Positions 1 through 17,021 of a DNA stretch of 17,021 nucleotides are shown here, piece after piece. The stretch lies in the UHGV virus genome UHGV-1579666; one strand, 5' to 3'. Source of the DNA: a virus. The position numbers and the translations under genes were made by a program. Under the pieces are notes generated by a model. The model did not search any database. It saw nothing but the letters and a program-made list of their open reading frames with translations, and was not told where the DNA came from. Each line of letters opens with the position of its first letter. Position 1 is the stretch's first letter.

Positions 1-170
1 AGATGTTATGCCGGGGCGGCGGGCGCATTCAAAAACCATCGCTCGCAACCTGTCGACGGGAAGTTGACGAAATCCTCAATGCCTCGTTGTTTATGATTTA
101 CCCGGTTCTGGATAGTGCGTTTAAAAACCGGAAACGTGTAGAGAAAATTAAACATGTAGCATAGAACGTG

Positions 171-205
171 TTGACATCATTGAGCAAATGAGCAACACTA
201 TTCGC
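171..205 (+). promoter_or_regulatory. Candidate late promoter (pR-prime-like): TTGACA -35 hexamer at 171-176 with only weak -10 candidates downstream
   Basis: Perfect TTGACA at 171-176; position upstream of a terminator and the lysis genes mirrors the lambdoid pR-prime/tR-prime arrangement. No convincing TATAAT-like -10 at 17 bp spacing. Confidence 0.3.
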
Positions 206-210
206 ATAAG

Positions 211-251
211 CTGCCGTTAGTGACTCTTAAGTTGCAACGGTGGCTTTTTTT
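211..251 (+). terminator. Intrinsic terminator-like hairpin followed by a 7-T run (tR-prime-like)
   Basis: ctgccgtt (211-218) pairs with aacggtgg (236-243), including two G-U wobbles, then TTTTTTT at 245-251. Confidence 0.5.
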
Positions 252-255
252 ATTT

Positions 256-330
256 GGGTCAGTCGTATAAAGGTCATTACGGAAGGCTGTTAACCTTCTT
301 ATCGTGGCTCGATCCCACGCTGTCCCGCCA
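256..330 (+). tRNA. tRNA-like gene, anticodon GUU (Asn) by manual cloverleaf folding; encoded CCA end
   Basis: Acceptor stem GGGTCAG/CTGTCCC (one T-T mismatch), D-loop with GG, perfect anticodon stem GAAGG/CCTTC with loop CTGTTAA, T-arm CGTGG-CTCGATC-CCACG, discriminator G and CCA at 328-330. Deviations: C at position 54, acceptor mismatch at 4-69. Confidence 0.5.
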
Positions 331-335
331 AACAT

Positions 336-411
336 GCTGGTTTAGCTCCAATGGTAGAGCGGTCGCCTTGTAAGCGAATGGGTAGCGGTTCAAGTCCGTT
401 AACCAGCACCA
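336..411 (+). tRNA. tRNA-like gene, anticodon UGU (Thr) by manual cloverleaf folding; encoded CCA end
   Basis: Perfect 7-bp acceptor stem GCTGGTT/AACCAGC, D-stem GCTC/GAGC with GG in the loop, anticodon loop CTTGTAA, T-loop TTCAAGT, CCA at 409-411. Deviations: C at position 14, G-A mismatch at 27-43. Confidence 0.55.
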
Positions 412-498
412 TAACTGAGCCGTAGCCACTGGCTATCATGAATTCATCAGTGATAGTTACGCTGCGGCATTCTACGCATGACCTTCGTGAAAGCGGGT

Positions 499-534
499 GG
501 CAAGAGGTTGCGCTAACAACCTCCTGCCGTTTTG
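499..534 (+). promoter_or_regulatory. Strong RNA hairpin (12-bp stem, one A-C mismatch, 6-nt loop) followed by GTTTTG, about 120 nt upstream of S
   Basis: ggcaagaggttg (499-510) pairs with caacctcctgcc (517-528); short T tract follows. Confidence 0.3.
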
Positions 535-653
535 CCCGTGCATATCGGTCACGAACAAATCTGATTACTAAACACAGTAGCCTGGATTTGTTCTATCAGT
601 AATCGACCTTATTCCTAATTAAATAGAGCAAATCCCCTTATTGGGGGTAAGAC

Positions 654-977
654 ATGAAGATGCCAGAAAAACATGACCTGTTAGCCGCCATTCTCGCGGC
701 AAAGGAACAAGGCATCGGGGCAATCCTTGCGTTTGCAATGGCGTACCTTCGCGGCAGATATAATGGCGGTGCGTTTACAAAAACAGTAATCGACGCAACG
801 ATGTGCGCCATTATCGCCTGGTTCATTCGTGACCTTCTCGACTTCGCCGGACTAAGTAGCAATCTCGCTTATATAACGAGCGTGTTCATCGGCTACATCG
901 GTACTGACTCGATTGGTTCGCTTATCAAACGCTTCGCTGCTAAAAAAGCCGGAGTAGAAGATGGTGGAAATCAATAA
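654..977 (+). CDS. S: Holin/antiholin S (class I holin); S107 from the ATG at 654, S105 from the ATG at 660
   Basis: 107-aa ORF beginning [20 protein letters not shown] with the dual-start Met-Lys-Met motif and hydrophobic transmembrane segments; matches lambda S as I recall it. Confidence 0.95.
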
Positions 978-1437
978 TCAACGTAAGGCGTTCCTCGATA
1001 TGCTGGCGTGGTCAGAGGGAACTGATAACGGACGGCAGAAAACCAGAAATCATGGTTATGACGTCATTGTAGGCGGAGAGCTATTCACTGATTACTCAGA
1101 TCACCCTCGCAAACTTGTCACGCTAAACCCCAAACTCAAATCAACAGCAGCCGGACGTTACCAGCTTCTTTCCCGTTGGTGGGATGCCTATCGTAAGCAG
1201 CTTGGCCTGAAAGACTTCTCTCCGAAAAGCCAGGACGCTGTGGCATTGCAGCAGATTAAAGAGCGTGGCGCTTTGCCGATGATTGATCGCGGTGATATTC
1301 GTCAGGCAATTGACCGTTGCAGCAATATCTGGGCTTCACTGCCGGGTGCTGGTTATGGTCAGTTCGAGCATAAGGCTGACAGCCTGATTGCAAAATTCAA
1401 AGAAGCTGGCGGAACGGTCAGAGAGATTGAGGTATGA
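961..1437 (+). CDS. R: Endolysin R (lytic transglycosylase)
   Basis: 158-aa ORF overlapping the S stop, beginning [24 protein letters not shown]; matches lambda R. Confidence 0.95.
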
Positions 1438-1895
1438 GCAGAGTAACCGCGATTATCTCCGCTCTGGTTATCTGCATCGTCGTCTGCCTGTCATGGGGTG
1501 TTAATCATTACCGTGATAACGCCATCGCCTACAAAGAACAGCGCGACAAAAATGCCAGAGAACTGAAGCTGGCGAACGCGGCAATTACTGACATGCAGAT
1601 GCGTCAGCGTGATGTTGCTGCGCTCGATGCAAAATACACGAAGGAGTTAGCTGATGCGAAAGCTGAAAATGATGCTCTGCGTGATGATGTTGCCGCTGGT
1701 CGTCGTCGGTTGCACATCAAAGCAGTCTGTCAGTCAGTGCGTGAAGCCACCACCGCCTCCGGCGTGGATAATGCAGCCTCCCCCCGACTGGCAGACACCG
1801 CTGAACGGGATTATTTCACCCTCAGAGAGAGGCTGATCACTATGCAAAAACAACTGGAAGGAACCCAGAAGTATATTAATGAGCAGTGCAGATAG
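1434..1895 (+). CDS. Rz: Spanin inner-membrane subunit Rz (i-spanin)
   Basis: 153-aa ORF with an N-terminal transmembrane segment and a coiled-coil-like body; start overlaps the R stop. Confidence 0.92.
1654..1836 (+). CDS. Rz1: Spanin outer-membrane lipoprotein Rz1 (o-spanin), embedded in the +1 frame of Rz
   Basis: 60-aa ORF with signal peptide and lipobox LVVVGC followed by a proline-rich segment; entirely inside Rz. Confidence 0.9.
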
Positions 1896-1926
1896 AGCTG
1901 CCCATATCGATGGGCAACTCATGCAA

Positions 1927-2220
1927 TTATTGTGAGCAATACACACGCGCTTCCAGCGGAGTATAAATGCCTAAAGTAATAAAACCGAGCAATCCATTTA
2001 CGAATGTTTGCTGGGTTTCTGTTTTAACAACATTTTCTGCGCCGCCACAAATTTTGGCTGCATCAACAGTTTTCTCCTGTCCAATTCCCGAAACGAAGAA
2101 GTGATGGGTGATGGTTTCCTTTGGTGTTACTGCTGTCGGTTTGTTTCCAACAGTAAACGTCTGTTGAGCACATCCTGTAATAAGCATTGCCAGAGCGGCA
2201 GAAAACAACATTTTTTTCAT
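1927..2220 (-). CDS. bor: Bor outer-membrane lipoprotein (serum-resistance lysogenic conversion protein), 97 aa
   Basis: Minus-strand ORF; start taken at MKKMLFSAALAMLITGC (lipobox LITGC) with an AGGA Shine-Dalgarno upstream. The ORF track's longer 113-aa version has 16 extra N-terminal residues and no better ribosome-binding site. Confidence 0.9.
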   Translation of the reverse strand: MKKMLFSAALAMLITGCAQQTFTVGNKPTAVTPKETITHHFFVSGIGQEKTVDAAKICGGAENVVKTETQQTFVNGLLGFITLGIYTPLEARVYCSQ

Positions 2221-2578
2221 CTTATTATCCTGCATTGTTAAAAACGGCAGAATCCTATGTGACAACAATTAAACGATAGTTAAATGGATTGATGAAAATT
2301 AAAACTATATAGGTGTACGCTCAGACTATTGGAGGAAGTTGGGGACACTCAGAATCCTGTGGAATGAAATAAACCGCTCTATCAGTCTATTACCCTTTTA
2401 GCTGCGCTGTATCGTCGCCGTATTCCCGCATTAACCATGACCGTAGCCCGACGGGGAATTCCTTCTGCGTGAGTGTGCGGGAATAATCAAAAACGATGCA
2501 CACCGGGGTTACCGGGTACACATATTTCATCATGCCAGCGAGTCCGGTTCTGGCACGGAAGAAACCGGACGTTATGAT

Positions 2579-2989
2579 TTAGTGCGGAAATATTTGTGTA
2601 GTGTTCTGAATGTTCTCAGTAAAGAGTAATGAATTATCAAAGGTATAGTAATACCTTTTGTTTTCGTGGATATTTGTAATCCATCTGAAAACCCCTGCTG
2701 TAGCAAGATTTTTCCTGTATTCGTAAAATGATAACTCTCCTGATTTGAATCCTTTTAAGGTGGCTTCTATAAGGCATTTATTTTTTGAAAATCTTACATT
2801 TACAACCTTACCCTGTCCTTTTATTAAAACCGTATTATCGTTTTCAAGAACAAGATGAATATTCTCTGTGGCTAAATAGTAAATGTAATGTGAGACATTG
2901 TGACGTTTTAGTTCAGAATAAAACCAGTGATAGTTTAAATTATTTCGCACTTTATCGAATATTTGTTTAAAAATGGCAACCTGAGCCAT
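2579..2989 (-). CDS. Hypothetical AT-rich accessory protein, DUF1398/YbcV-like (family assignment from memory); about 136 aa from the second Met
   Basis: Minus-strand ORF 2579-3004. A GGAAGG Shine-Dalgarno precedes the second ATG (protein [14 protein letters not shown]...), so start placed at 2989; the first ATG at 3004 is also possible. N/K/Y/I-rich composition. Confidence 0.6.
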
Positions 2990-3046
2990 TGTAGTACCTT
3001 CCATGTGATATGAGGGTACCTAGTCTGCACGATTATCTAAATTGCT

Positions 3047-3280
3047 TCAATCTGGTCTGACCTGCTTTCTGAGCAATTCAGTAATGTCACTCTTTTCTTT
3101 GTTTGCTTCAGGCGAAACTCTTTTTTCTGAGCACAGTCTCCGGCGGCAGGCTTCAATGACCCAGGCTGAGAAATTCCCGGACCCTTTTTGATCAAGAGCG
3201 ATGTTAATTTGTTCAATCATTTGGTTAGGAAAGCGGATGTTGCGGGTTGTTGTTCTGCGGGTTCTGTTCTTCGTTGACAT
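3047..3280 (-). CDS. Small basic protein with a ribbon-helix-helix-like core, YlcI/DUF3950-like (from memory); putative DNA-binding regulator
   Basis: 77-aa minus-strand ORF with a basic N-terminus (MSTKNRTRRTTTRN) followed by IRFPNQMIEQINIALDQKGSGNFSAWVIEACRRRL, which has the strand-helix-helix pattern of Arc/CopG-type proteins. Lies 42-57 nt upstream of the DUF1398-like gene on the same strand. Confidence 0.55.
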   Translation of the reverse strand: MSTKNRTRRTTTRNIRFPNQMIEQINIALDQKGSGNFSAWVIEACRRRLCSEKRVSPEANKEKSDITELLRKQVRPD

Positions 3281-3449
3281 GAGGTTGCCCTGTATTCAGT
3301 GTCGCTGATTTGTATTGTCTGAAGTTGTTTTTACGTTAAGTTGATGCAGATCAATTAATACGATACCTGCGTCATAATTGATTATTTGACGTGGTTTGAT
3401 GGCGTAGATGCACGTTGTGACATGCAGATGATAATTATTATCATTTTGC

Positions 3450-3668
3450 GGGTCCTTTCCGGCGATCCGACAGGTTACGGGGCGGCGACCTCGCGGGTTT
3501 TCGCTATTTATGAAAATTTTCCGGTTTAAGGCGTTTCCGTTCTTCTTCGTCGTAACTTAATGTTTTTATTTAAAATACCCCCTGAAAAGAAAGGAAACGA
3601 CAGGTGCTGAAAACGGGCTTTTTGGCCTCTGTCGTTTCCTTTCTCTGTTTTTGTCCGTGGAATGAACA
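3450..3668 (+). other. cos: cos region: cosQ (GGGTCCT, 3450-3456), cosN (3480-3491), cosB with R3/I1/R2/R1 elements (about 3492-3668)
   Basis: GGGCGGCGACCT at 3480-3491 is the lambda 12-nt cohesive-end sequence; GGGTCCT lies about 24 bp upstream; repeated CGTTTCC-type elements in both orientations (about 3531-3549, 3589-3603, 3629-3645) flank an AT-rich stretch, directly upstream of Nu1. Confidence 0.9.
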
Positions 3669-4188
3669 ATGGAAGTCAACAAAAAGCAGCTGGCTGACAT
3701 TTTCGGTGCGAGTATCCGTACCATTCAGAACTGGCAGGAACAGGGAATGCCCGTTCTGCGAGGCGGTGGCAAGGGTAATGAGGTGCTTTATGACTCTGCC
3801 GCCGTTATAAGATGGTATGCCGAAAGGGATGCTGAAATTGAGAACGAAAAGCTGCGCCGGGAAGTTGAAGAACTGCGGCAGGCCAGCGAGACAGATCTCC
3901 AGCCAGGGACTATTGAGTACGAACGCCATCGACTTACGCGTGCGCAGGCCGACGCACAGGAGCTGAAAAATGCCAGAGACTCCGCTGAAGTGGTGGAAAC
4001 CGCATTCTGTACTTTCGTGCTGTCGCGGATCGCAGGTGAAATTGCCAGTATTCTCGACGGGATCCCCCTGTCGGTGCAGCGGCGTTTTCCGGAACTGGAA
4101 AACCGACATGTTGATTTCCTGAAACGGGATATCATCAAAGCCATGAACAAAGCAGCCGCGCTGGATGAACTGATACCGGGGTTGCTGA

Positions 4189-4214
<26 letters not shown>
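3669..4214 (+). CDS. nu1: Terminase small subunit Nu1
   Basis: 181-aa ORF beginning MEVNKKQLADIFGASIRTIQNWQEQGMPV (winged helix-turn-helix N-terminus), immediately downstream of cosB. Confidence 0.95.
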
Positions 4215-7895
<3,681 letters not shown>

Positions 7896-7915
<20 letters not shown>

Positions 7916-9215
7916 TCTCCCGCATATTGCCAGCATGGCCTTTAATGAGCCGCTGATGCTTGAACCCGCCTATGCGCGGGTTTTCTTTTGTGCGCTTGCA
8001 GGCCAGCTTGGGATCAGTCGCCTGACGGATGCGGTGTCCGGCGACAGCCTGACTGCCGGAGAGGCACCCGCGGCGCTGGCGTTATCCGGTGATGATGACG
8101 GACCACGACAGGCCCGCAGTTATCAGGTCATGAACGGCATCGCCGTGCTGCCGGTGTCCGGCACGCTGGTCAGCCGGACGCGGGCGCTGCAGCCGTATTC
8201 GGGGATGACCGGTTACAACGGCATTATCGCCCGTCTGCAACAGGCTGCCAGCGATCCGATGGTGGACGGCATTCTGCTGGATATGGACACACCGGGCGGG
8301 ATGGTGGCGGGAGCATTTGACTGTGCTGACATCATCGCCCGTGTGCGAGACATAAAACCGGTATGGGCGCTGGCCAACGACATGAACTGCAGTGCAGGTC
8401 AGCTGCTTGCCAGTGCCGCCTCCCGGCGTCTGGTCACGCAGACCGCCCGGACAGGCTCCATCGGCGTCATGATGGCTCACAGTAATTACGGTGCTGCGCT
8501 GGAGAAACAGGGCGTGGAAATCACGCTGATTTACAGCGGCAGCCATAAGGTGGATGGCAACCCCTACAGCCATCTACCGGATGATGTCCGGGAAACACTG
8601 CAGTCCCGGATGGATGCAACCCGCCAGATGTTTGCGCAGAAGGTGTCGGCATATACCGGCCTGTCCGTGCAGGCTGTGCTGGATACCGAGGCTGCAGTGT
8701 ACAGCGGTCAGGAGGCCATTGATGCCGGACTGGCTGATGAACTTGTTAACAGCACCGATGCGATCACCGTCATGCGTGATGCACTGGATGCACGTAAATC
8801 CCGTCTCTCAGGAGGGCGAATGACCAAAGAGACTCAATCAACAACTGTTTCAGCCACTGCTTCGCAGGCTGACGTTACTGACGTGGTGCCAGCGACGGAG
8901 GGCGAAAACGCCAGCGCGGCGCAGCCGGACGTGAACGCGCAGATCACCGCTGCGGTTGCGGCAGAAAACAGCCGCATTATGGGGATCCTCAACTGTGAGG
9001 AGGCTCACGGACGCGAAGAACAGGCACGCGTGCTGGCAGAAACCCCCGGTATGACCGTGGAAACGGCCCGCCGCATTCTGGCAGCTGCACCACAGAGTGC
9101 ACAGGCGCGCAGTGACACTGCGCTGGATCGTCTGATGCAGGGGGCACCGGCACCGCTGGCTGCAGGTAACCCGGCATCTGATGCCGTTAACGATTTGCTG
9201 AACACACCAGTGTAA
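7896..9215 (+). CDS. C: Head maturation protease C (ClpP/S49-like), GTG start
   Basis: GTG at 7896 preceded by GGAGGAGAAGA gives a 439-aa product beginning VTAELRNLPHIASMAFNEPLM; overlaps the B 3' end by 20 nt. The ORF track's upstream ATG at 7761 lies inside B and is not used. Confidence 0.9.
8610..9215 (+). CDS. nu3: Scaffolding protein Nu3, in-frame internal start within C
   Basis: ATG at 8610 in the C frame (MDATRQMFAQKV...), same stop as C; 201 aa, the lambda nested C/Nu3 arrangement. Confidence 0.8.
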   Translation: MDATRQMFAQKVSAYTGLSVQAVLDTEAAVYSGQEAIDAGLADELVNSTDAITVMRDALDARKSRLSGGRMTKETQSTTVSATASQADVTDVVPATEGENASAAQPDVNAQITAAVAAENSRIMGILNCEEAHGREEQARVLAETPGMTVETARRILAAAPQSAQARSDTALDRLMQGAPAPLAAGNPASDAVNDLLNTPV

Positions 9216-9224
9216 GGGATGTTT

Positions 9225-9557
9225 ATGACGAGCAAAGAAACCTTTACCCATTACCAGCCGCTGGGCAACAGTGACCCGGCTCATACCGCAACCGCGCCCG
9301 GCGGATTGAGTGCGAAAGCGCCTGCAATGACCCCGCTGATGCTGGACACCTCCACCCGTAAGCTGGTTGCGTGGGATGGCACCACCGACGGTGCTGCCGT
9401 TGGCATTCTGGCGGTTGCTGCTGACCAGACCAGCACCACACTGACGTTCTACAAGTCCGGCTCGTTCCGTTATGAGGATGTGCTCTGGCCGGAGGCTGCC
9501 AGCGACGAGACGAAAAAACGGACCGCGTTTGCCGGAACGGCAATCAGCATCGTTTAA
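9225..9557 (+). CDS. D: Head decoration protein D
   Basis: 110-aa product [17 protein letters not shown]... from the ATG at 9225 (Shine-Dalgarno AAGGG 6 nt upstream); the ATG at 9219 is too close to the ribosome-binding site. Confidence 0.93.
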
Positions 9558-9576
9558 CCTTACCCTTCATCACTAA

Positions 9577-9599
9577 AGGCCGCCTGTGCGGCTTTTTTT
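9577..9599 (+). terminator. Intrinsic-terminator-like hairpin with T7 tract between D and E
   Basis: GCCGC (9579-9583), loop CTGT, GCGGC (9588-9592), then TTTTTTT at 9593-9599. Confidence 0.45.
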
Positions 9600-9612
9600 A
9601 CGGGATTTTTTT

Positions 9613-10638
9613 ATGTCGATGTACACAACCGCCCAGCTGCTGGCGGCAAATGAGCAGAAATTTAAGTTTGATCCGCTGTTTCTGCGTCTCTTTTTCCGTG
9701 AGAGCTATCCCTTCACCACGGAGAAAGTCTATCTCTCACAAATTCCGGGACTGGTAAACATGGCGCTGTACGTTTCGCCGATTGTTTCCGGTGAGGTTAT
9801 CCGTTCCCGTGGCGGCTCCACCTCTGAATTTACGCCGGGATATGTCAAACCCAAGCATGAGGTGAATCCGCAGATGACCCTGCGTCGCCTGCCGGATGAA
9901 GATCCGCAGAATCTGGCGGACCCGGCTTACCGCCGCCGTCGCATCATCATGCAGAACATGCGTGACGAAGAGCTGGCCATTGCTCAGGTCGAAGAGATGC
10001 AGGCAGTTTCTGCCGTGCTTAAGGGCAAATACACCATGACCGGTGAAGCCTTCGATCCGGTTGAGGTGGATATGGGCCGCAGTGCGGCGAATAACATCAC
10101 GCAGTCCGGCGGCACGGAGTGGAGCAAGCGTGACAAGTCCACGTATGACCCGACCGACGATATCGAAGCCTACGCGCTGAACGCCAGCGGTGTGGTGAAT
10201 ATCATCGTGTTTGATCCGAAAGGCTGGGCGCTGTTCCGTTCCTTCAAAGCCGTCAAGGAGAAGCTGGATACCCGTCGCGGCTCTCATTCCGAGCTGGAGA
10301 CAGCGGTAAAAGACCTGGGCAAAGCGGTGTCCTATAAGGGAATGTATGGCGATGTGGCCATCGTCGTGTATTCCGGACAGTACGTGGAAAACGGCGTCAA
10401 AAAGAACTTCCTGCCGGACAACACGATGGTGCTGGGGAACACTCAGGCACGCGGTCTGCGCACCTATGGCTGCATTCAGGATGCGGACGCACAGCGCGAA
10501 GGCATTAACGCCTCTGCCCGTTACCCGAAAAACTGGGTGACCACCGGCGATCCGGCGCGTGAGTTCACCATGATTCAGTCAGCACCGCTGATGCTGCTGG
10601 CTGATCCTGATGAGTTCGTGTCCGTTCAACTGGCGTAA
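9613..10638 (+). CDS. E: Major capsid protein E
   Basis: 341-aa product MSMYTTAQLLAANEQKFKFDPLFLRLFF... from the ATG at 9613; the ORF track's 9586 start adds 9 residues inside the terminator-like T tract. Confidence 0.95.
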   Translation: MSMYTTAQLLAANEQKFKFDPLFLRLFFRESYPFTTEKVYLSQIPGLVNMALYVSPIVSGEVIRSRGGSTSEFTPGYVKPKHEVNPQMTLRRLPDEDPQNLADPAYRRRRIIMQNMRDEELAIAQVEEMQAVSAVLKGKYTMTGEAFDPVEVDMGRSAANNITQSGGTEWSKRDKSTYDPTDDIEAYALNASGVVNIIVFDPKGWALFRSFKAVKEKLDTRRGSHSELETAVKDLGKAVSYKGMYGDVAIVVYSGQYVENGVKKNFLPDNTMVLGNTQARGLRTYGCIQDADAQREGINASARYPKNWVTTGDPAREFTMIQSAPLMLLADPDEFVSVQLA

Positions 10639-10679
10639 TCATGGCCCTTCGGGGCCATTTTCTCTCTGTGGAGGAGTCC

Positions 10680-11078
10680 ATGACGAAAGATGAACTGATT
10701 GCCCGTCTTCAGGAGCTGGGTGAGCAACTGAACCGCGATATCAGTTTGACGGGAACGAAAGAAGAACTGGCGCTTCGTGTGGCAGAGCTGGAAGAAGAGC
10801 TTGATGACACGGATGAAACTGCCGGTCAGGACACCCCTCTCAGCCGGGAAAATGTGCTGACCGGGCATGAAAATGAGGTGATATCAGCGCAGCCGGATAC
10901 CGTGATTCAGGATACGGCTGAACTGGTCACGGTCGTGGCACTGGTGACGCTGCATACTGATGCACTTCACGCCACGCGGGATGAACCTGTGGCATTTGTG
11001 CTGCCGGGAACGGCGTTTCGTGTCTCTGCCGGTGTGGCAGCCGAAATGACAGAGCGCGGCCTGGCCAGAATGCAATAA
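10680..11078 (+). CDS. FI: DNA-packaging/head assembly accessory protein FI
   Basis: 132-aa product MTKDELIARLQELGEQ... from the ATG at 10680 with GGAGG Shine-Dalgarno; the upstream ATG at 10641 sits inside a hairpin stem. Confidence 0.9.
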   Translation: MTKDELIARLQELGEQLNRDISLTGTKEELALRVAELEEELDDTDETAGQDTPLSRENVLTGHENEVISAQPDTVIQDTAELVTVVALVTLHTDALHATRDEPVAFVLPGTAFRVSAGVAAEMTERGLARMQ

Positions 11079-11089
11079 CGGGAGGCGCT

Positions 11090-11443
11090 GTGGCTGATTT
11101 CGATAACCTGTTCGATGCTGCCATTGCCCGCGCCGATGAAACGATACGCGGGTACATGGGAACGTCAGCCACCATGACATCCGGTGAGCAGTCCGGTGCT
11201 GTGATACGTGGTGTTTTTGATGACCCTGAAAATATCAGCTATGCCGGACAGGGCGTGCGCGTTGAAGGCTCCAGCCCGTCCCTGTTTGTCCGGACTGATG
11301 AGGTGCGGCAGCTGCGGCGTGGAGACACGCTGACCATCGGTGAGGAAAATTTCTGGGTAGATCGGGTTTCGCCGGATGATGGCGGAAGCTGTCATCTCTG
11401 GCTTGGACGGGGCGTACCGCCTGCCGTTAACCGTCGCCGCTGA
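11090..11443 (+). CDS. FII: Head-tail joining (head completion) protein FII, GTG start
   Basis: 117-aa ORF MADFDNLFDAAIARADE... with GGGAGG upstream. Confidence 0.9.
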   Translation: MADFDNLFDAAIARADETIRGYMGTSATMTSGEQSGAVIRGVFDDPENISYAGQGVRVEGSSPSLFVRTDEVRQLRRGDTLTIGEENFWVDRVSPDDGGSCHLWLGRGVPPAVNRRR

Positions 11444-11454
11444 AAGGGGGATGT

Positions 11455-12033
11455 ATGGCCATAAAAGGTCTTGAGCAGGCCGTTGAAAACCTCAGCCGTA
11501 TCAGCAGAACGGCGGTGCCCGGTGCCGCCGCAATGGCCATTAACCGAGTTGCTTCATCCGCGATATCGCAGTCTGCGTCACAGGTTGCCCGTGAGACAAA
11601 GGTACGCCGGAAACTGGTAAAGGAAAGGGCCAGGCTGAAAAGGGCCACGGTCAAAAATCCGCAGGCCAGAATCAAGGTTAACCGGGGGGATTTGCCCGTA
11701 ATCAAGCTGGGTAATGCGCGGGTTGTCCTTTCGCGCCGCAGGCGTCGTAAAAAGGGGCAGCGTTCATCCCTGAAAGGTGGCGGCAGCGTGCTTGTGGTGG
11801 GAAACCGTCGTATTCCCGGCGCGTTTATTCAGCAACTGAAAAATGGCCGGTGGCATGTCATGCAGCGTGTGGCCGGGAAAAACCGTTACCCCATTGATGT
11901 GGTGAAAATCCCGATGGCGGTGCCGCTGACCACGGCGTTTAAACAGAATATTGAGCGGATACGGCGTGAGCGTCTTCCGAAAGAGCTGGGCTATGCGCTG
12001 CAGCATCAACTGAGAATGGTAATAAAGCGATGA
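11455..12033 (+). CDS. Z: Tail completion protein Z
   Basis: 192-aa ORF MAIKGLEQAVENLSRIS..., position after FII. Confidence 0.9.
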   Translation: MAIKGLEQAVENLSRISRTAVPGAAAMAINRVASSAISQSASQVARETKVRRKLVKERARLKRATVKNPQARIKVNRGDLPVIKLGNARVVLSRRRRRKKGQRSSLKGGGSVLVVGNRRIPGAFIQQLKNGRWHVMQRVAGKNRYPIDVVKIPMAVPLTTAFKQNIERIRRERLPKELGYALQHQLRMVIKR

Positions 12034-12425
12034 AACATACTGAACTCCGTGCAGCCGTACTGGATGCACTGGAGAAGCATGACACCGGGGCGACGCTTTT
12101 TGATGGTCGCCCCGCTGTTTTTGATGAGGCGGATTTTCCGGCAGTTGCCGTTTATCTCACCGGCGCTGAATACACGGGCGAAGAGCTGGACAGCGATACC
12201 TGGCAGGCGGAGCTGCATATCGAAGTTTTCCTGCCTGCTCAGGTGCCGGATTCAGAGCTGGATTCGTGGATGGAGTCCCGGATTTATCCGGTGATGAGCG
12301 ATATCCCGGCACTGTCAGATTTGATCACCAGTATGGTGGCCAGTGGCTATGACTACCGGCGCGACGATGATGCGGGCCTGTGGAGTTCAGCCGATCTGAC
12401 TTATGTCATTACCTATGAAATGTGA
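12030..12425 (+). CDS. U: Tail terminator protein U
   Basis: 131-aa [23 protein letters not shown]..., start overlapping the Z stop. Confidence 0.9.
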
Positions 12426-12432
12426 GGACGAT

Positions 12433-13173
12433 ATGCCAACACCAAATCCTCTGGCACCGGTGAAAGGGGCCGGGACCACACTGTGGGTTTATAACGGGAG
12501 CGGCGACCCTTATGCAAACCCGCTTTCAGACAATGACTGGTCGCGTCTGGCAAAGGTTAAAGACCTGACGCCCGGCGAACTGACCGCTGAGTCCTATGAC
12601 GACAGTTATCTCGATGATGAAGATGCGGACTGGACCGCGACCGGGCAGGGGCAGAAATCCGCCGGAGATACCAGCTTCACGCTGGCGTGGATGCCCGGAG
12701 AGCAGGGGCAGCAGGCGCTGCTGGCGTGGTTTAATGAAGGTGATACCCGTGCCTATAAAATCCGCTTCCCGAACGGCACGGTCGATGTGTTCCGCGGCTG
12801 GGTCAGCAGTATCGGTAAGGCGGTGACGGCGAAGGAAGTGATCACCCGCACGGTGAAAGTCACCAATGTGGGACGTCCGTCGATGGCAGAAGATCGCAGC
12901 ACGGTAACAGCGGCAACCGGTATGACCGTGACGCCAGCCAGCGCTTCCGTAGTGAAAGGGAAGAGCACCACGCTGACCGTGGCATTCCAGCCGGAAGGCG
13001 CAACCGACAAGAGCTTCCGTGCGGTGTCAGCGGATAAAACAAAAGCCACCGTGTCGGTCAGTGGTATGACCATCACCGTGAAAGGTGTTGCTGCAGGCAA
13101 GGTCAACATTCCGGTCGTATCCGGTAATGGTGAACTTGCTGCGGTTGCAGAAATCAACGTCACCGCCAGTTAA
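12433..13173 (+). CDS. V: Major tail tube protein V with C-terminal Ig-like domain
   Basis: 246-aa product from the ATG at 12433 ([20 protein letters not shown]...); C-terminal region shows a Big_2-like Ig repeat pattern. Confidence 0.92.
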
Positions 13174-13188
13174 TCCGGAGAGTCAGCG

Positions 13189-13611
13189 ATGTTCCTGAAA
13201 ACCGAATCATTTGAACATAACGGTGTGACCGTCACGCTTTCTGAACTGTCAGCCCTGCAGCGTATTGAGCATCTCGCCCTGATGAAACGGCAGGCAGAAC
13301 AGGCGGAGTCAGACAGCAACCGGAAGTTTACTGTGGAAGACGCCATCAGAACCGGCGCGTTTCTGGTGGCGATGTCCCTGTGGCATAACCATCCGCAGAA
13401 GACGCAGATGCCGTCCATGAATGAAGCCGTTAAACAGATTGAGCAGGAAGTGCTTACCACCTGGCCCACGGAGGCAATTTCTCATGCTGAAAACGTGGTG
13501 TACCGGCTGTCTGGTATGTATGAGTTTGTTGTGAATAATGCCCCTGAACAGACAGAGGACGCCGGGCCTGCAGAGCCTGTTTCTGCGGGAAAGTGTTCGA
13601 CGGTGAGCTGA
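13189..13611 (+). CDS. G: Tail assembly chaperone G
   Basis: 140-aa ORF MFLKTESFEHNGVTVTLSELSALQRIEH...; contains the slippery heptamer G GGA AAG near its 3' end. Confidence 0.92.
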   Translation: MFLKTESFEHNGVTVTLSELSALQRIEHLALMKRQAEQAESDSNRKFTVEDAIRTGAFLVAMSLWHNHPQKTQMPSMNEAVKQIEQEVLTTWPTEAISHAENVVYRLSGMYEFVVNNAPEQTEDAGPAEPVSAGKCSTVS

Positions 13612-14027
13612 GTTTTGCCCTGAAACTGGCGCGTGAGATGGGGCGACCCGACTGGCGTGCCATGCTTGCCGGGATGTCATCCACGGAGTATGCCGACTGG
13701 CACCGCTTTTACAGTACCCATTATTTTCATGATGTTCTGCTGGATATGCACTTTTCCGGGCTGACGTACACCGTGCTCAGCCTGTTTTTCAGCGATCCGG
13801 ATATGCATCCGCTGGATTTCAGTCTGCTGAACCGGCGCGAGGCTGACGAAGAGCCTGAAGATGATGTGCTGATGCAGAAAGCGGCAGGGCTTGCCGGAGG
13901 TGTCCGCTTTGGCCCGGACGGGAATGAAGTTATCCCCGCTTCCCCGGATGTGGCGGACATGACGGAGGATGACGTAATGCTGATGACAGTATCAGAAGGG
14001 ATCGCAGGAGGAGTCCGGTATGGCTGA
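13189..14027 (+). CDS. T: Tail assembly chaperone G-T fusion, made by programmed -1 ribosomal frameshift at GGGAAAG (13587-13593)
   Basis: The -1 frame downstream of the slip site is open to 14027 and encodes the T-domain sequence (FDGELSFALKLAREMGRPDW...). The ORF track entry 13593-14027 is this T frame. Confidence 0.85.
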
Positions 14028-16581
14028 ACCGGTAGGCGATCTGGTCGTTGATTTAAGTCTGGATGCGGCCAGATTTGACGAGCAGATGGCCAGAGTCAGG
14101 CGTCATTTTTCCGGTACGGAAAGTGATGCGAAAAAAACAGCGGCAGTCGTTGAACAGTCGCTGAGCCGACAGGCGCTGGCTGCACAGAAAGCGGGGATTT
14201 CCGTCGGGCAGTATAAAGCTGCCATGCGTATGCTGCCTGCACAGTTCACCGACGTGGCCACGCAGCTTGCAGGCGGGCAAAGCCCGTGGCTGATCCTGCT
14301 GCAACAGGGTGGTCAGGTTAAGGACTCCTTCGGCGGGATGATCCCCATGTTCAGGGGGCTTGCCGGTGCGATCACCCTGCCGATGGTGGGGGCCACCTCG
14401 CTGGCGGTGGCGACCGGTGCGCTGGCGTATGCCTGGTATCAGGGCAACTCAACCCTGTCCGATTTCAACAAAACGCTGGTCCTTTCCGGCAATCAGGCGG
14501 GACTGACGGCAGATCGTATGCTGGTCCTGTCCAGAGCCGGGCAGGCGGCAGGGCTGACGTTTAACCAGACCAGCGAGTCACTCAGCGCACTGGTTAAGGC
14601 GGGGGTAAGCGGTGAGGCTCAGATTGCGTCCATCAGCCAGAGTGTGGCGCGTTTCTCCTCTGCATCCGGCGTGGAGGTGGACAAGGTCGCTGAAGCCTTC
14701 GGGAAGCTGACCACAGACCCGACGTCGGGGCTGACGGCGATGGCACGCCAGTTCCATAACGTGACGGCGGAGCAGATTGCGTATGTTGCTCAGTTGCAGC
14801 GTTCCGGCGATGAAGCCGGGGCATTGCAGGCGGCGAACGAGGCCGCAACGAAAGGGTTTGATGACCAGACCCGCCGCCTGAAAGAGAACATGGGCACGCT
14901 GGAGACCTGGGCAGACAGGACAGCACGGGCATTCAAATCCATGTGGGATGCGGTGCTGGATATTGGTCGTCCTGATACCGCGCAGGAGATGCTGATTAAG
15001 GCAGAGGCTGCGTTTAAGAAAGCAGACGACATCTGGAATCTGCGCAAGGATGATTATTTTGTTAACGATGAAGCGCGGGCGCGTTACTGGGATGATCGTG
15101 AAAAGGCCCGTCTTGCGCTTGAAGCCGCCCGAAAGAAGGCTGAGCAGCAGACTCAACAGGACAAAAATGCGCAGCAGCAGAGCGATACCGAAGCGTCACG
15201 GCTGAAATATACCGAAGAGGCGCAGAAGGCTTACGAACGGCTGCAGACGCCGCTGGAGAAATATACCGCCCGTCAGGAAGAACTGAACAAGGCACTGAAA
15301 GACGGGAAAATCCTGCAGGCGGATTACAACACGCTGATGGCGGCGGCGAAAAAGGATTATGAAGCGACGCTGAAAAAGCCGAAACAGTCCGGCGTGAAGG
15401 TGTCTGCGGGCGATCGTCAGGAAGACAGTGCTCATGCTGCCCTGCTGACGCTTCAGGCAGAACTCCGGACGCTGGAGAAGCATGCCGGAGCAAATGAGAA
15501 AATCAGCCAGCAGCGCCGGGATTTGTGGAAGGCGGAGAGTCAGTTCGCGGTACTGGAGGAGGCGGCGCAACGTCGCCAGCTGTCTGCACAGGAGAAATCC
15601 CTGCTGGCGCATAAAGATGAGACGCTGGAGTACAAACGCCAGCTGGCTGCACTTGGCGACAAGGTTACGTATCAGGAGCGCCTGAACGCGCTGGCGCAGC
15701 AGGCGGATAAATTCGCACAGCAGCAACGGGCAAAACGGGCCGCCATTGATGCGAAAAGCCGGGGGCTGACTGACCGGCAGGCAGAACGGGAAGCCACGGA
15801 ACAGCGCCTGAAGGAACAGTATGGCGATAATCCGCTGGCGCTGAATAACGTCATGTCAGAGCAGAAAAAGACCTGGGCGGCTGAAGACCAGCTTCGCGGG
15901 AACTGGATGGCAGGCCTGAAGTCCGGCTGGAGTGAGTGGGAAGAGAGCGCCACGGACAGTATGTCGCAGGTAAAAAGTGCAGCCACGCAGACCTTTGATG
16001 GTATTGCACAGAATATGGCGGCGATGCTGACCGGCAGTGAGCAGAACTGGCGCAGCTTCACCCGTTCCGTGCTGTCCATGATGACAGAAATTCTGCTTAA
16101 GCAGGCAATGGTGGGGATTGTCGGGAGTATCGGCAGCGCCATTGGCGGGGCTGTTGGTGGCGGCGCATCCGCGTCAGGCGGTACAGCCATTCAGGCCGCT
16201 GCGGCGAAATTCCATTTTGCAACCGGAGGATTTACGGGAACCGGCGGCAAATATGAGCCAGCGGGGATTGTTCACCGTGGTGAATTTGTCTTCACGAAGG
16301 AGGCAACCAGCCGGATTGGCGTGGGGAATCTTTACCGGCTGATGCGCGGCTATGCCACCGGCGGTTATGTCGGTACACCGGGCAGCATGGCAGACAGCCG
16401 GTCGCAGGCGTCCGGGACGTTTGAGCAGAATAACCATGTGGTGATTAACAACGACGGCACGAACGGGCAGATAGGTCCGGCTGCTCTGAAGGCGGTGTAT
16501 GACATGGCCCGCAAGGGTGCCCGTGATGAAATTCAGACACAGATGCGTGATGGTGGCCTGTTCTCCGGAGGTGGACGATGA
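14020..16581 (+). CDS. H: Tail tape measure protein H
   Basis: 853-aa ORF with long coiled-coil-rich regions and a Gly-rich C-terminal segment; start overlaps the G-T stop. Confidence 0.95.
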   Translation: MAEPVGDLVVDLSLDAARFDEQMARVRRHFSGTESDAKKTAAVVEQSLSRQALAAQKAGISVGQYKAAMRMLPAQFTDVATQLAGGQSPWLILLQQGGQVKDSFGGMIPMFRGLAGAITLPMVGATSLAVATGALAYAWYQGNSTLSDFNKTLVLSGNQAGLTADRMLVLSRAGQAAGLTFNQTSESLSALVKAGVSGEAQIASISQSVARFSSASGVEVDKVAEAFGKLTTDPTSGLTAMARQFHNVTAEQIAYVAQLQRSGDEAGALQAANEAATKGFDDQTRRLKENMGTLETWADRTARAFKSMWDAVLDIGRPDTAQEMLIKAEAAFKKADDIWNLRKDDYFVNDEARARYWDDREKARLALEAARKKAEQQTQQDKNAQQQSDTEASRLKYTEEAQKAYERLQTPLEKYTARQEELNKALKDGKILQADYNTLMAAAKKDYEATLKKPKQSGVKVSAGDRQEDSAHAALLTLQAELRTLEKHAGANEKISQQRRDLWKAESQFAVLEEAAQRRQLSAQEKSLLAHKDETLEYKRQLAALGDKVTYQERLNALAQQADKFAQQQRAKRAAIDAKSRGLTDRQAEREATEQRLKEQYGDNPLALNNVMSEQKKTWAAEDQLRGNWMAGLKSGWSEWEESATDSMSQVKSAATQTFDGIAQNMAAMLTGSEQNWRSFTRSVLSMMTEILLKQAMVGIVGSIGSAIGGAVGGGASASGGTAIQAAAAKFHFATGGFTGTGGKYEPAGIVHRGEFVFTKEATSRIGVGNLYRLMRGYATGGYVGTPGSMADSRSQASGTFEQNNHVVINNDGTNGQIGPAALKAVYDMARKGARDEIQTQMRDGGLFSGGGR

Positions 16582-16907
16582 AAACCTTCCGCTGGAAAGT
16601 GAAACCCGGTATGGATGTGGCTTCGGTCCCTTCTGTAAGAAAGGTGCGCTTTGGTGATGGCTATTCTCAGCGAGCGCCTGCCGGGCTGAATGCCAACCTG
16701 AAAACGTACAGCGTGACGCTTTCTGTCCCCCGTGAGGAGGCCACGGTACTGGAGTCGTTTCTGGAAGAGCACGGGGGCTGGAAAGCCTTTCTGTGGACGC
16801 CGCCTTATGAGTGGCGGCAGATAAAGGTGACCTGCGCAAAATGGTCGTCGCGGGTCAGTATGCTGCGTGTTGAGTTCAGCGCAGAGTTTGAACAGGTGGT
16901 GAACTGA
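16578..16907 (+). CDS. M: Tail tip (distal tail) protein M
   Basis: 109-aa ORF MKTFRWKVKPGMDVASVPSVRKVRFGDGYSQ..., start overlapping the H stop. Confidence 0.92.
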   Translation: MKTFRWKVKPGMDVASVPSVRKVRFGDGYSQRAPAGLNANLKTYSVTLSVPREEATVLESFLEEHGGWKAFLWTPPYEWRQIKVTCAKWSSRVSMLRVEFSAEFEQVVN

Positions 16908-17021
16908 TGCAGGATATCCGGCAGGAAACACTGAATGAATGCACCCGTGCGGAGCAGTCGGCCAGCGTGGTGCTCTGGGAAATCGATCTGACAGAGGTCG
17001 GTGGAGAACGTTATTTTTTCT
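16907..17021 (+). CDS. L: Tail tip assembly protein L, 5' partial (continues beyond the window)
   Basis: ATG at 16907 overlaps the M stop (TGATG); frame MQDIRQETLNECTRAEQSASVVLWEIDLTEVGGERYFF stays open to the window end. Confidence 0.85.
   Translation, partial: MQDIRQETLNECTRAEQSASVVLWEIDLTEVGGERYFF

Follow-up and report, generated by a model that had tools for sequence, protein, structure and literature searches.

The closest described counterpart of the locus analysed here is the late control region of coliphage 21, and Q-dependent read-through of the terminator has been demonstrated for phage 21 itself (PMC6606751; bioRxiv 10.1101/651190). The Q21 binding element (QBE) is made up of two direct TGAGCA repeats that lie between the −35 and the −10 element and have C:G pairs at positions −21 and −13; residues R113, A124, T125, R127 and R128 of Q21 contact the DNA (PMC6606751). 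In the paper on phage L the element is quoted as ATTGAGCA/AaTGAGCA (PMC8022706). One or both of two tRNA genes have been described at the same position, downstream of Q, in phages p21, Sf6, ST64T, PS3 and SfI (PMC3636060; PMC8022706). A phage 21 late switch standing before lambda-type late genes is an already documented configuration, and the locus presented here is nothing new in kind.

The window, i.e. the whole stretch of 17,021 nucleotides of viral DNA that was analysed, very probably carries at positions 1–411 the late control cassette of coliphage 21, placed before lambda-type lysis and head/tail genes, and the boundary at 412/413 is very probably old and widely shared among phages.

The late control region

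A preliminary description of this DNA, made from the letters alone, had regarded positions 1–411 as part of a Q/pR' module of non-lambda type, and it is to phage 21 that this module proved to belong. In a distant-mode search, positions 1–415 were 98.6% identical over their full length to phage 21 (AJ237660) and 99.0% identical to Shigella phage SfI. Considered by segments, the identity to phage 21 amounts to 164/164 for 1–164, 49/49 for 207–255 and 152/156 for 256–411, and the annotation of AJ237660 beneath the match consists of Q, a promoter and a 50-nt 'aRNA'. The promoter-like TTGACA, the terminator and the two tRNA genes noticed earlier within 1–411 were all located, together with further elements of the phage 21 late switch:

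1–164, plus strand: 3' end of a phage-21-type Q antiterminator gene (codons 110–162 and the stop codon TAG at 162–164; bases 1–2 close codon 109)
171–176, plus strand: −35 hexamer TTGACA of the late promoter pR'21, read directly; it lies inside the promoter annotated in AJ237660 and in Sf6, and at −35 to −30 relative to the start derived from PMC6606751
179–194, plus strand: QBE with the tandem 8-bp subsites ATTGAGCA and AATGAGCA, TGAGCA cores at 181–186 and 189–194
194–199, plus strand: putative −10 hexamer AACACT of pR'21 with a 17-bp spacer, positioned by the numbering of PMC6606751; sequence identical to phage 21
206, plus strand: predicted late transcription start +1 (A), from the positions of the QBE cytosines (PMC6606751); within one base of the 'aRNA' of AJ237660
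207–212, plus strand: sigma-dependent pause element, −10-like TAAGCT, at +2 to +7; the exact hexamer is a candidate derived from the bubble +3 to +15 of the paused complex (PMC6606751)
208–251, plus strand: intrinsic terminator tR'21, a 17-bp interrupted hairpin (208–246) and seven T at 245–251
256–330, plus strand: tRNA-Asn gene (anticodon GUU) with encoded CCA and a private T-loop variant (ARAGORN; Rfam 49.5 bits)
336–411, plus strand: tRNA-Thr gene (anticodon UGU) with encoded CCA (ARAGORN; Rfam 61.2 bits)

The open frame running from the window start to the stop codon TAG at 162–164 had been suspected to be the 3' end of an upstream gene, and it is indeed the end of Q. The translation of the frame-3 ORF at 3–164, MLCRGGGRIQKPSLATCRREVDEILNASLFMIYPVLDSAFKNRKRVEKIKHVA, corresponds to residues 110–162 of phage 21 Q and is identical at 53/53 positions to the protein in PDB entries 6JNX and 6P18. 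The DNA of 1–164 is identical at 164/164 positions not only to AJ237660 but likewise to SfI. The first 109 residues of the protein are encoded beyond the window edge, and all five of the DNA-contacting residues of Q21 named above are found within the visible fragment. A Pfam search with the 53-residue fragment by itself gave no match, because the PF06530 model spans residues 15–103; a full-length homologue and the PDB match were therefore used for the family assignment. The homologue, encoded by a prophage of E. coli E89 with DNA identical over 1–164, belongs to PF06530 (86.9 bits), whereas lambda Q belongs to the unrelated family PF03589. These results support the assignment of Q21 specificity (PF06530), and not that of lambda Q, to the gene at the window edge, of which the last third is visible, and agree with the earlier supposition of a Q with a different specificity, as does the presence of the published Q21 element.

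At an interval of 8 bp, the two TGAGCA repeats lie between the −35 and −10 elements and place C185 at −21 and C193 at −13; from these two cytosines it follows that transcription would start at A206, with the −35 element at 171–176 and the −10 element (−12 to −7) at 194–199. The QBE of the window matches exactly the element given in PMC6606751 and PMC8022706 and is identical in 22 IMG/VR loci. The candidate pause element TAAGCT, a −10-like sequence in the initially transcribed region, has A at position 2 and T at position 6 and is unchanged in five reference phages. Between the promoter and the late genes, the hairpin of the intrinsic terminator tR' has a dG of −20.2 kcal/mol (z = −6.1), with 0/200 dinucleotide shuffles as stable, and tR' carries a late leader terminator annotation in the records of Sf6 and Nil2. 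A consensus promoter/terminator scan of 1–1000 detected neither pR' nor tR'. The former was missed because its −10 hexamer AACACT fits the consensus at 3/6 positions, and the latter because a 17-pair stem with a bulge exceeds simple stem/loop rules. The assignment of both, putative for this phage, is made by identity to the experimentally characterised sites of phage 21 and not by independent prediction.

If the published work on Q21, from which the steps of pausing, loading and nozzle formation are taken (PMC6606751; bioRxiv 10.1101/651190), is applied here by sequence identity, late control in this phage would proceed as follows. The Q gene, with its last 53 codons visible, would supply the Q21 antiterminator. 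The promoter pR'21 would fire constitutively with sigma-70 RNA polymerase, using the −35 element at 171–176 and starting at A206, and the polymerase would pause at the −10-like TAAGCT at 207–212. Without Q, transcription would terminate at tR' (hairpin 208–246 and U-run), giving a leader RNA of about 46–50 nt. With Q21, two protomers on the tandem TGAGCA subsites (181–194), between the −35 and −10 elements, would load onto the paused polymerase, and at the RNA exit channel one of them would form a ring or 'nozzle' and so block terminator hairpins, resulting in processive antitermination. The polymerase would then pass tR' and transcribe tRNA-Asn and tRNA-Thr, followed by S, R, Rz and the morphogenetic genes, while host RNase P, together with 3' processing, would release the tRNAs from the leader. 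Antitermination control of the late operon in this lambda-like phage or prophage would be of the Q21 type and not of the lambda type; since a given Q acts through a binding element specific to it, lambda Q is not expected to activate this operon, nor Q21 that of lambda.

The two tRNA genes

Exactly two tRNA genes were found by ARAGORN in the 17-kb window. Both beat the RF00005 gathering score of 29, both have the anticodon and the acceptor end intact, CCA being encoded in each, and their discriminators as read from the sequence are G73 (Asn) and A73 (Thr); both are predicted to function. An Rfam scan of 1–1000 by E-value detected these two tRNAs only, with no described RNA family over the leader or the linker that follows; a match to snoU85 of 15 bits was rejected as noise. 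The tRNA-Asn gene starts 4 nt past the U-run of the terminator, a gap too short to hold a separate promoter, so that the anatomy of the region points to transcription of the tRNAs by read-through from pR'.

The tRNA-Asn gene is placed equally in phage 21, SfI and Sf6. Its T-loop GGCTCGATCCC, however, was found in the window alone among 63 copies, with three private changes that include T54 to C, and an exact-match search of IMG/VR for this variant gave zero matches. Because of these three changes the tRNA-Asn is possibly impaired, although the variant could also represent an adaptive change instead of decay. As to tRNA-Thr, four IMG/VR loci show a compensatory change of G5-C68 to U5-A68 in the acceptor stem, a sign that its fold is under selection.

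Codon demand was considered as a reason for the tRNA cassette and rejected. Over the 4651 codons of the 18 late genes, ACA and ACG account for 12.5% and 34.9% of the threonine codons, respectively, and AAC for 59.7% of the asparagine codons, and this codon use shows no special need. By E. coli standards the usage of ACA, ACG and AAC in the late genes is unremarkable. Lambda gets by without these two tRNAs. For SfI, an ACA bias has been reported by its authors (PMC3636060).

The boundary with lambda-type DNA and the linker

When the whole window was compared by megablast with 50,697 phage records, lambda records matched positions 409–17021 at 97.5% identity. A sensitive blastn search against lambda (NC_001416) placed the left edge of the alignment at window position 413, equivalent to lambda 44945 and one base past the CCA of tRNA-Thr, from which base-by-base identity continues unbroken; no alignment was found by this search to the left of 413. 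In ungapped register, the number of matches per 20 bases rises from 3–6 left of position 400 to 16–20 from 410 rightward. Forced global alignment of the sub-segments of 1–411 gave identities to lambda of 49–65%, which is the level of chance. The breakpoint near 412, lambda-like on its right side, thus lies where the preliminary description had put it, and 1–411, described there as unlike lambda, is neither collinear with nor identical to lambda in the alignment proposed at that time.

Collinearity with lambda spans 413–17021, through cos, which is joined and inside the window at 3480, as far as gene M. The identity is 95.7% over 413–2274, 82.6% over 2400–3067 and 98.4% over 3118–17021, and about 0.6 kb of lambda (47532–48140) is missing from the window. 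Clean ORFs are present for S, R, Rz, Nu1, A, W, B, C, D, E, FI, FII, Z, U, V, G, H and M. The lysis cassette and late operon are of the lambda type, with collinear S (dual start), R, Rz/Rz1, cos and Nu1 through M, whereas the lambda Q/pR'/6S RNA module, with similarity to lambda 43886–44944 and a Q of PF03589, is not what the window contains. The features next to the boundary are the following:

413–473, plus strand: conserved 61-bp linker, joining the exchangeable modules on its two sides and folding into an imperfect hairpin with GAATTC at its centre
474–653, plus strand: lambda-type lysis-gene leader with a stem-loop just 5' of the dual start of S (33/36 identical to lambda over 474–509 and 144/144 over 510–653)
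654–977, plus strand: lambda-type holin/antiholin gene S with the dual start ATG AAG ATG, the first late gene (107-aa ORF, collinear with lambda S 45186–45509)

A seven-way alignment revealed that the linker at 413–473 is common to lambda, phage 21, SfI, Sf6, JEP4 and an E. coli prophage. By local BLAST, phage 21 matches the window up to 445, where AJ237660 ends, and SfI up to 473, departing at 473/474 into a different lysis cassette. Since both phage 21 and SfI carry the lambda-like 413–473, the boundary at 412/413 did not originate in this phage; compared with a genome of the phage 21 type, the switch to lambda-type DNA is at 473/474. Furthermore, 1–411 is not a single block but three separately exchangeable pieces, 1–206, 207–255 and 256–411. 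The identities of the window to three reference phages differ along the region as follows:

1–206: Sf6 65–71%, JEP4 98–100%, lambda 55–61%
207–255: Sf6 98%, JEP4 98%, lambda 65%
256–411: Sf6 97%, JEP4 58%, lambda 49%
413–473: Sf6 90%, JEP4 92%, lambda 88.5%
510–653: Sf6 99%, JEP4 99%, lambda 100%

The piece 207–255, with pause element and terminator, sits behind three unrelated classes of promoter and QBE, which were recovered with the pause element as fixed search anchor: the 21-type with TGAGCA repeats, the Sf6/L-type with TTAGCC repeats, and a third class. Past the U-run there is either the tRNA pair or, in JEP4, a 194-bp filler that is not tRNA. An exact-pattern scan of IMG/VR with the first 19 bases of the linker found at least 120 loci, and context classes were defined from 300 bases on either side of the linker match, only full-length context matches being counted. 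Among the IMG/VR matches listed, the tRNA-type left context is combined with a lambda-S right context at 44 loci and with an S21-type right context at 13, the lambda-type left context with lambda-S at 18 and with S21-type at 1, and the JEP4-type left context with lambda-S at 22. No full-length combination of JEP4-type left with S21-type right occurs among the matches listed, in which this left context is represented by two matches of partial length. Most combinations of the three left and two right contexts are found among these listed matches, and they suggest that the linker acts as a site of homologous recombination: being shared, it offers a place to recombine, so that Q and lysis cassettes would reassort around it.

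It is possible, but rather unlikely, that the boundary at 412/413 arose by illegitimate recombination exactly at the 3' end of a tRNA gene, after which selection kept those products whose genes were intact (the Hendrix model), in which case the 61 bp would be the edge of a leader that has spread and not a site of homologous exchange. A boundary one base past the CCA of tRNA-Thr is what selection for intact units predicts, and the sub-boundaries at 206/207 (start site) and 255/256 (after the U-run) are also functional edges; a functional linker, moreover, finds no support in covariation. However, the 61-bp segment has a limit at either end, as the SfI-type similarity stops at 473/474, and most left/right combinations exist among the IMG/VR matches listed. 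A bounded linker occurring in many combinations is explained more easily by repeated homologous exchange than by many illegitimate events at the same two points. An illegitimate origin and later reuse by homologous exchange are compatible.

Doubtful, and less probable still, is a role of the linker as functional late-leader RNA, either as a processing site that frees the tRNAs or as a back-up terminator stopping leaky pR' transcripts before the holin gene. Its fold has a dG of −26 to −28 kcal/mol, and in S21-type contexts a T-run directly 3' of the hairpin gives it a terminator-like look. Among 38 distinct linker sequences, 96.8% of the cells pair, with zero double-sided changes and no excess over shuffles, and the conservation may reflect recent spread instead of function. 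If the function were true, this conservation would incidentally make the linker a preferred crossover point for Q-specificity and lysis cassettes.

It is hardly credible that the locus has a pR' region which is lambda-like apart from an added tRNA 'moron', without a swap of Q specificity. The tRNA pair does act as a discrete cassette, the JEP4-type phages having the same Q21, pR', tR' and linker but the 194-bp filler in its place, and tRNAs are present at this position in Stx phages, too. Positions 1–255, upstream of the tRNAs, nevertheless have a forced identity to lambda of 55–65% and are unrelated to it, while the protein is Q21, whose Pfam family differs from that of lambda Q, and the QBE is of the Q21 type. 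Simple insertion of tRNA genes is refuted, neither 1–255 nor the Q protein being lambda-like.

The phage 21 cassette in front of lambda-type lysis genes is not confined to this virus. The arrangement of the first 700 bp (1–700) was found, at a threshold of at least 80% coverage, in 176/5426 complete E. coli genomes originating from cattle, poultry, human and wastewater sources, with a best identity of 98.9%; the same search found roughly 1500 prophage copies in E. coli. The best E. coli matches are all annotated in the order 'antiterminator Q family protein', 'tRNA-Asn', 'tRNA-Thr' and 'phage holin, lambda family'. The same arrangement is also present in Sf6 and many P22-like phages, and 32–17021 is covered in one place by three E. 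coli genomes. An artificial junction, whether from a chimeric assembly or from a laboratory lambda-21 hybrid with the phage 21 Q region, is extremely improbable: such hybrids have been widely made in the laboratory, the Q fragment and terminator match phage 21 at 100% and the window passes over the joined cos site, but a late region that shares just 97.5% with lambda, drops to 82.6% at 2400–3067 and lacks about 0.6 kb is unlike a laboratory derivative of lambda, and the identical arrangement in the 176 E. coli genomes, its occurrence in Sf6 and P22-like Salmonella phages and the three genomes spanning 32–17021 in one place speak against it as well.

With five short exchangeable pieces, whose boundaries lie at functional edges, and a conserved 61-bp joint, the locus is a compact and well-sampled example of lambdoid mosaicism at the scale of tens of bases, and involves no new principle. 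In annotation, the small ORF at the edge should be given as the end of Q, and the two tRNAs as belonging to the late leader; beyond such correct annotation the locus is of little importance.

Comparison with known systems

Phage 21 (AJ237660; 6JNX, 6P18) shares with the window all 53 visible residues of Q, the DNA of 1–164 and 207–255, the −35 element, QBE, −10 element, pause element and terminator, both tRNAs in their order and spacing, and the first 33 bases past tRNA-Thr, to the end of the record. Its tRNAs differ from those of the window at four positions, three of which lie close together in the T-loop of tRNA-Asn. AJ237660 furthermore reads AAGT-AGCA in subsite 2 of the QBE, in contrast to AATGAGCA in both the window and the published QBE, which is probably an error of the old record. 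Relatives of phage 21 such as SfI continue past 473 with a 71-codon holin gene and a lysis cassette of their own, whereas the window has lambda S, R and Rz; the SfI holin, unlike lambda S, is probably of the S21 pinholin type, judging from its size and its similarity to DLP12.

The Stx phages with the q21 allele (Nil2, 2851 and Stx2c phages) have the same Q21, pR' and tR', 97.8% identical over window 1–279. Their similarity stops at 279, inside tRNA-Asn, and other DNA takes the place of both the tRNA pair and a lambda-type S; the annotation of Nil2 shows an IS-like insertion at the point where similarity to the window stops. In phages of the JEP4 type, Q21, pR' and tR' (98–100%) as well as the linker are again the same, but the 194-bp non-tRNA filler replaces the tRNAs. 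Lambda itself is collinear with the window from 44945 onward, whereas its Q/pR'/6S/tR' region (43886–44944) has no similarity to 1–411, encodes a Q of PF03589 and contains no tRNA genes. The leader RNA of lambda (6S) is about 194 nt long, compared with about 46–50 nt predicted here.

Sf6 and the P22-like phages (BTP1, SPN9CC, L and ST64T) have a Q21-family gene, tR', the tRNAs and a lambda-type S in the same order as the window, and the same junction of tRNA-Thr, linker and lambda-type S leader. Their virion genes are P22-like, whereas those of the window are lambda-like, and their Q gene and promoter are just 65–71% identical to the window. Their QBE is another tandem repeat, AATTAGCC/ATTTAGCC (PMC8022706), which implies another Q specificity inside the same family. 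In the GenBank record of Sf6, the promoter, qut site, terminator and both tRNAs are annotated as 'similar to phage 21'.

Sequence changes in the two tRNA genes and their replacement

In the acceptor stem of the phage tRNA-Thr, a compensatory double change from G5-C68 to U5-A68 is present in four copies (IMG/VR loci L091, L113, L117 and L044), which is evidence that the fold of this tRNA is under selection within this phage lineage. Comparison with other copies of the tRNA-Asn located an altered T-loop in the window.

Window 313-323: T-arm of tRNA-Asn, with the altered T-loop

Three clustered substitutions private to the window copy change GGTTCGAGTCC to GGCTCGATCCC, and among them the nearly universal T54 is replaced by C. 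None of 62 other tRNA-Asn copies compared, from phage 21, SfI, Sf6, one E. coli prophage and IMG/VR loci, carries the variant, and an exact search of IMG/VR for it returned no match. The Rfam score of the tRNA-Asn is 49.5 bits in the window, compared with 55.3 for the phage 21 copy. The variant could have arisen by gene decay in a prophage or as a gene-conversion patch, or could be a sequencing error.

JEP4-type phages have a filler at the site where the window has the tRNA pair. In JEP4 itself, 194 bp of non-tRNA sequence (1757-1950) lie between the late leader terminator tR'21 and the linker, in place of window 256-411, and ARAGORN detected no tRNA in this filler. It contains a 33-base match to lambda at about 44775-44807, inside orf-64, and its final 9 bases align with lambda too.

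The promoter side

The unit at window 207-255, consisting of the pause element and the tR' hairpin, was also observed in IMG/VR loci L055 and L042, where it stands behind a third unrelated upstream sequence, TTGAGGCAGCCAGAATGAAATATCATACCGTTTAAAGATG, with neither a 21-type nor an Sf6-type QBE (the Q binding element). The phage 21 record of 1999 (AJ237660) reads AAGT-AGCA at 1688-1695, the positions corresponding to window 187-194, whereas AATGAGCA is present there in the window, in SfI and in E. coli prophages, and is also the sequence published for the Q21 QBE; the reading in AJ237660 is probably an error of the deposited sequence.

Hairpins between the tRNA genes and S

The 61-bp linker at window 413-473 can be folded into a stable imperfect hairpin with an EcoRI site at its centre, for which no covariation support was found. 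The linker is kept at 88–100% in phages with unrelated flanks on both sides, and to our knowledge no function has been described for it. In S21-type phages, which have an SfI-like lysis cassette to its right, TTCTTTTTT follows directly on its 3' side, and judged from sequence the two together look terminator-like.

The lambda-type S leader contains another hairpin at window 494-536, GC-rich and with GTTTTG after it (GGCAAGAGGTTGCGCTAACAACCTCCTGCC), which is also kept in lambda, Sf6 and JEP4. Located between tR' and S, this putative element resembles a weak intrinsic terminator.

The cos site and the bor-to-cos region

Window 3480-3491: lambda cos left-end sequence, GGGCGGCGACCT
Window 2579-3004, minus strand: ORF of 141 aa, counterpart of lambdap78

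The cos sequence is flanked by Rz, bor and other genes on the left and by Nu1 on the right. Since cos is inside the window, the source is a prophage, a circle or a concatemer and not a linear virion genome. The bor-to-cos region (window 2274-3118) shows three differences from that of lambda: there is no homology at positions 2274-2400; identity is only 82.6% over positions 2400-3067, the stretch containing the lambdap78 counterpart; and about 50 bases stand in place of lambda 47532-48140, a segment of about 0.6 kb that includes lambdap79.
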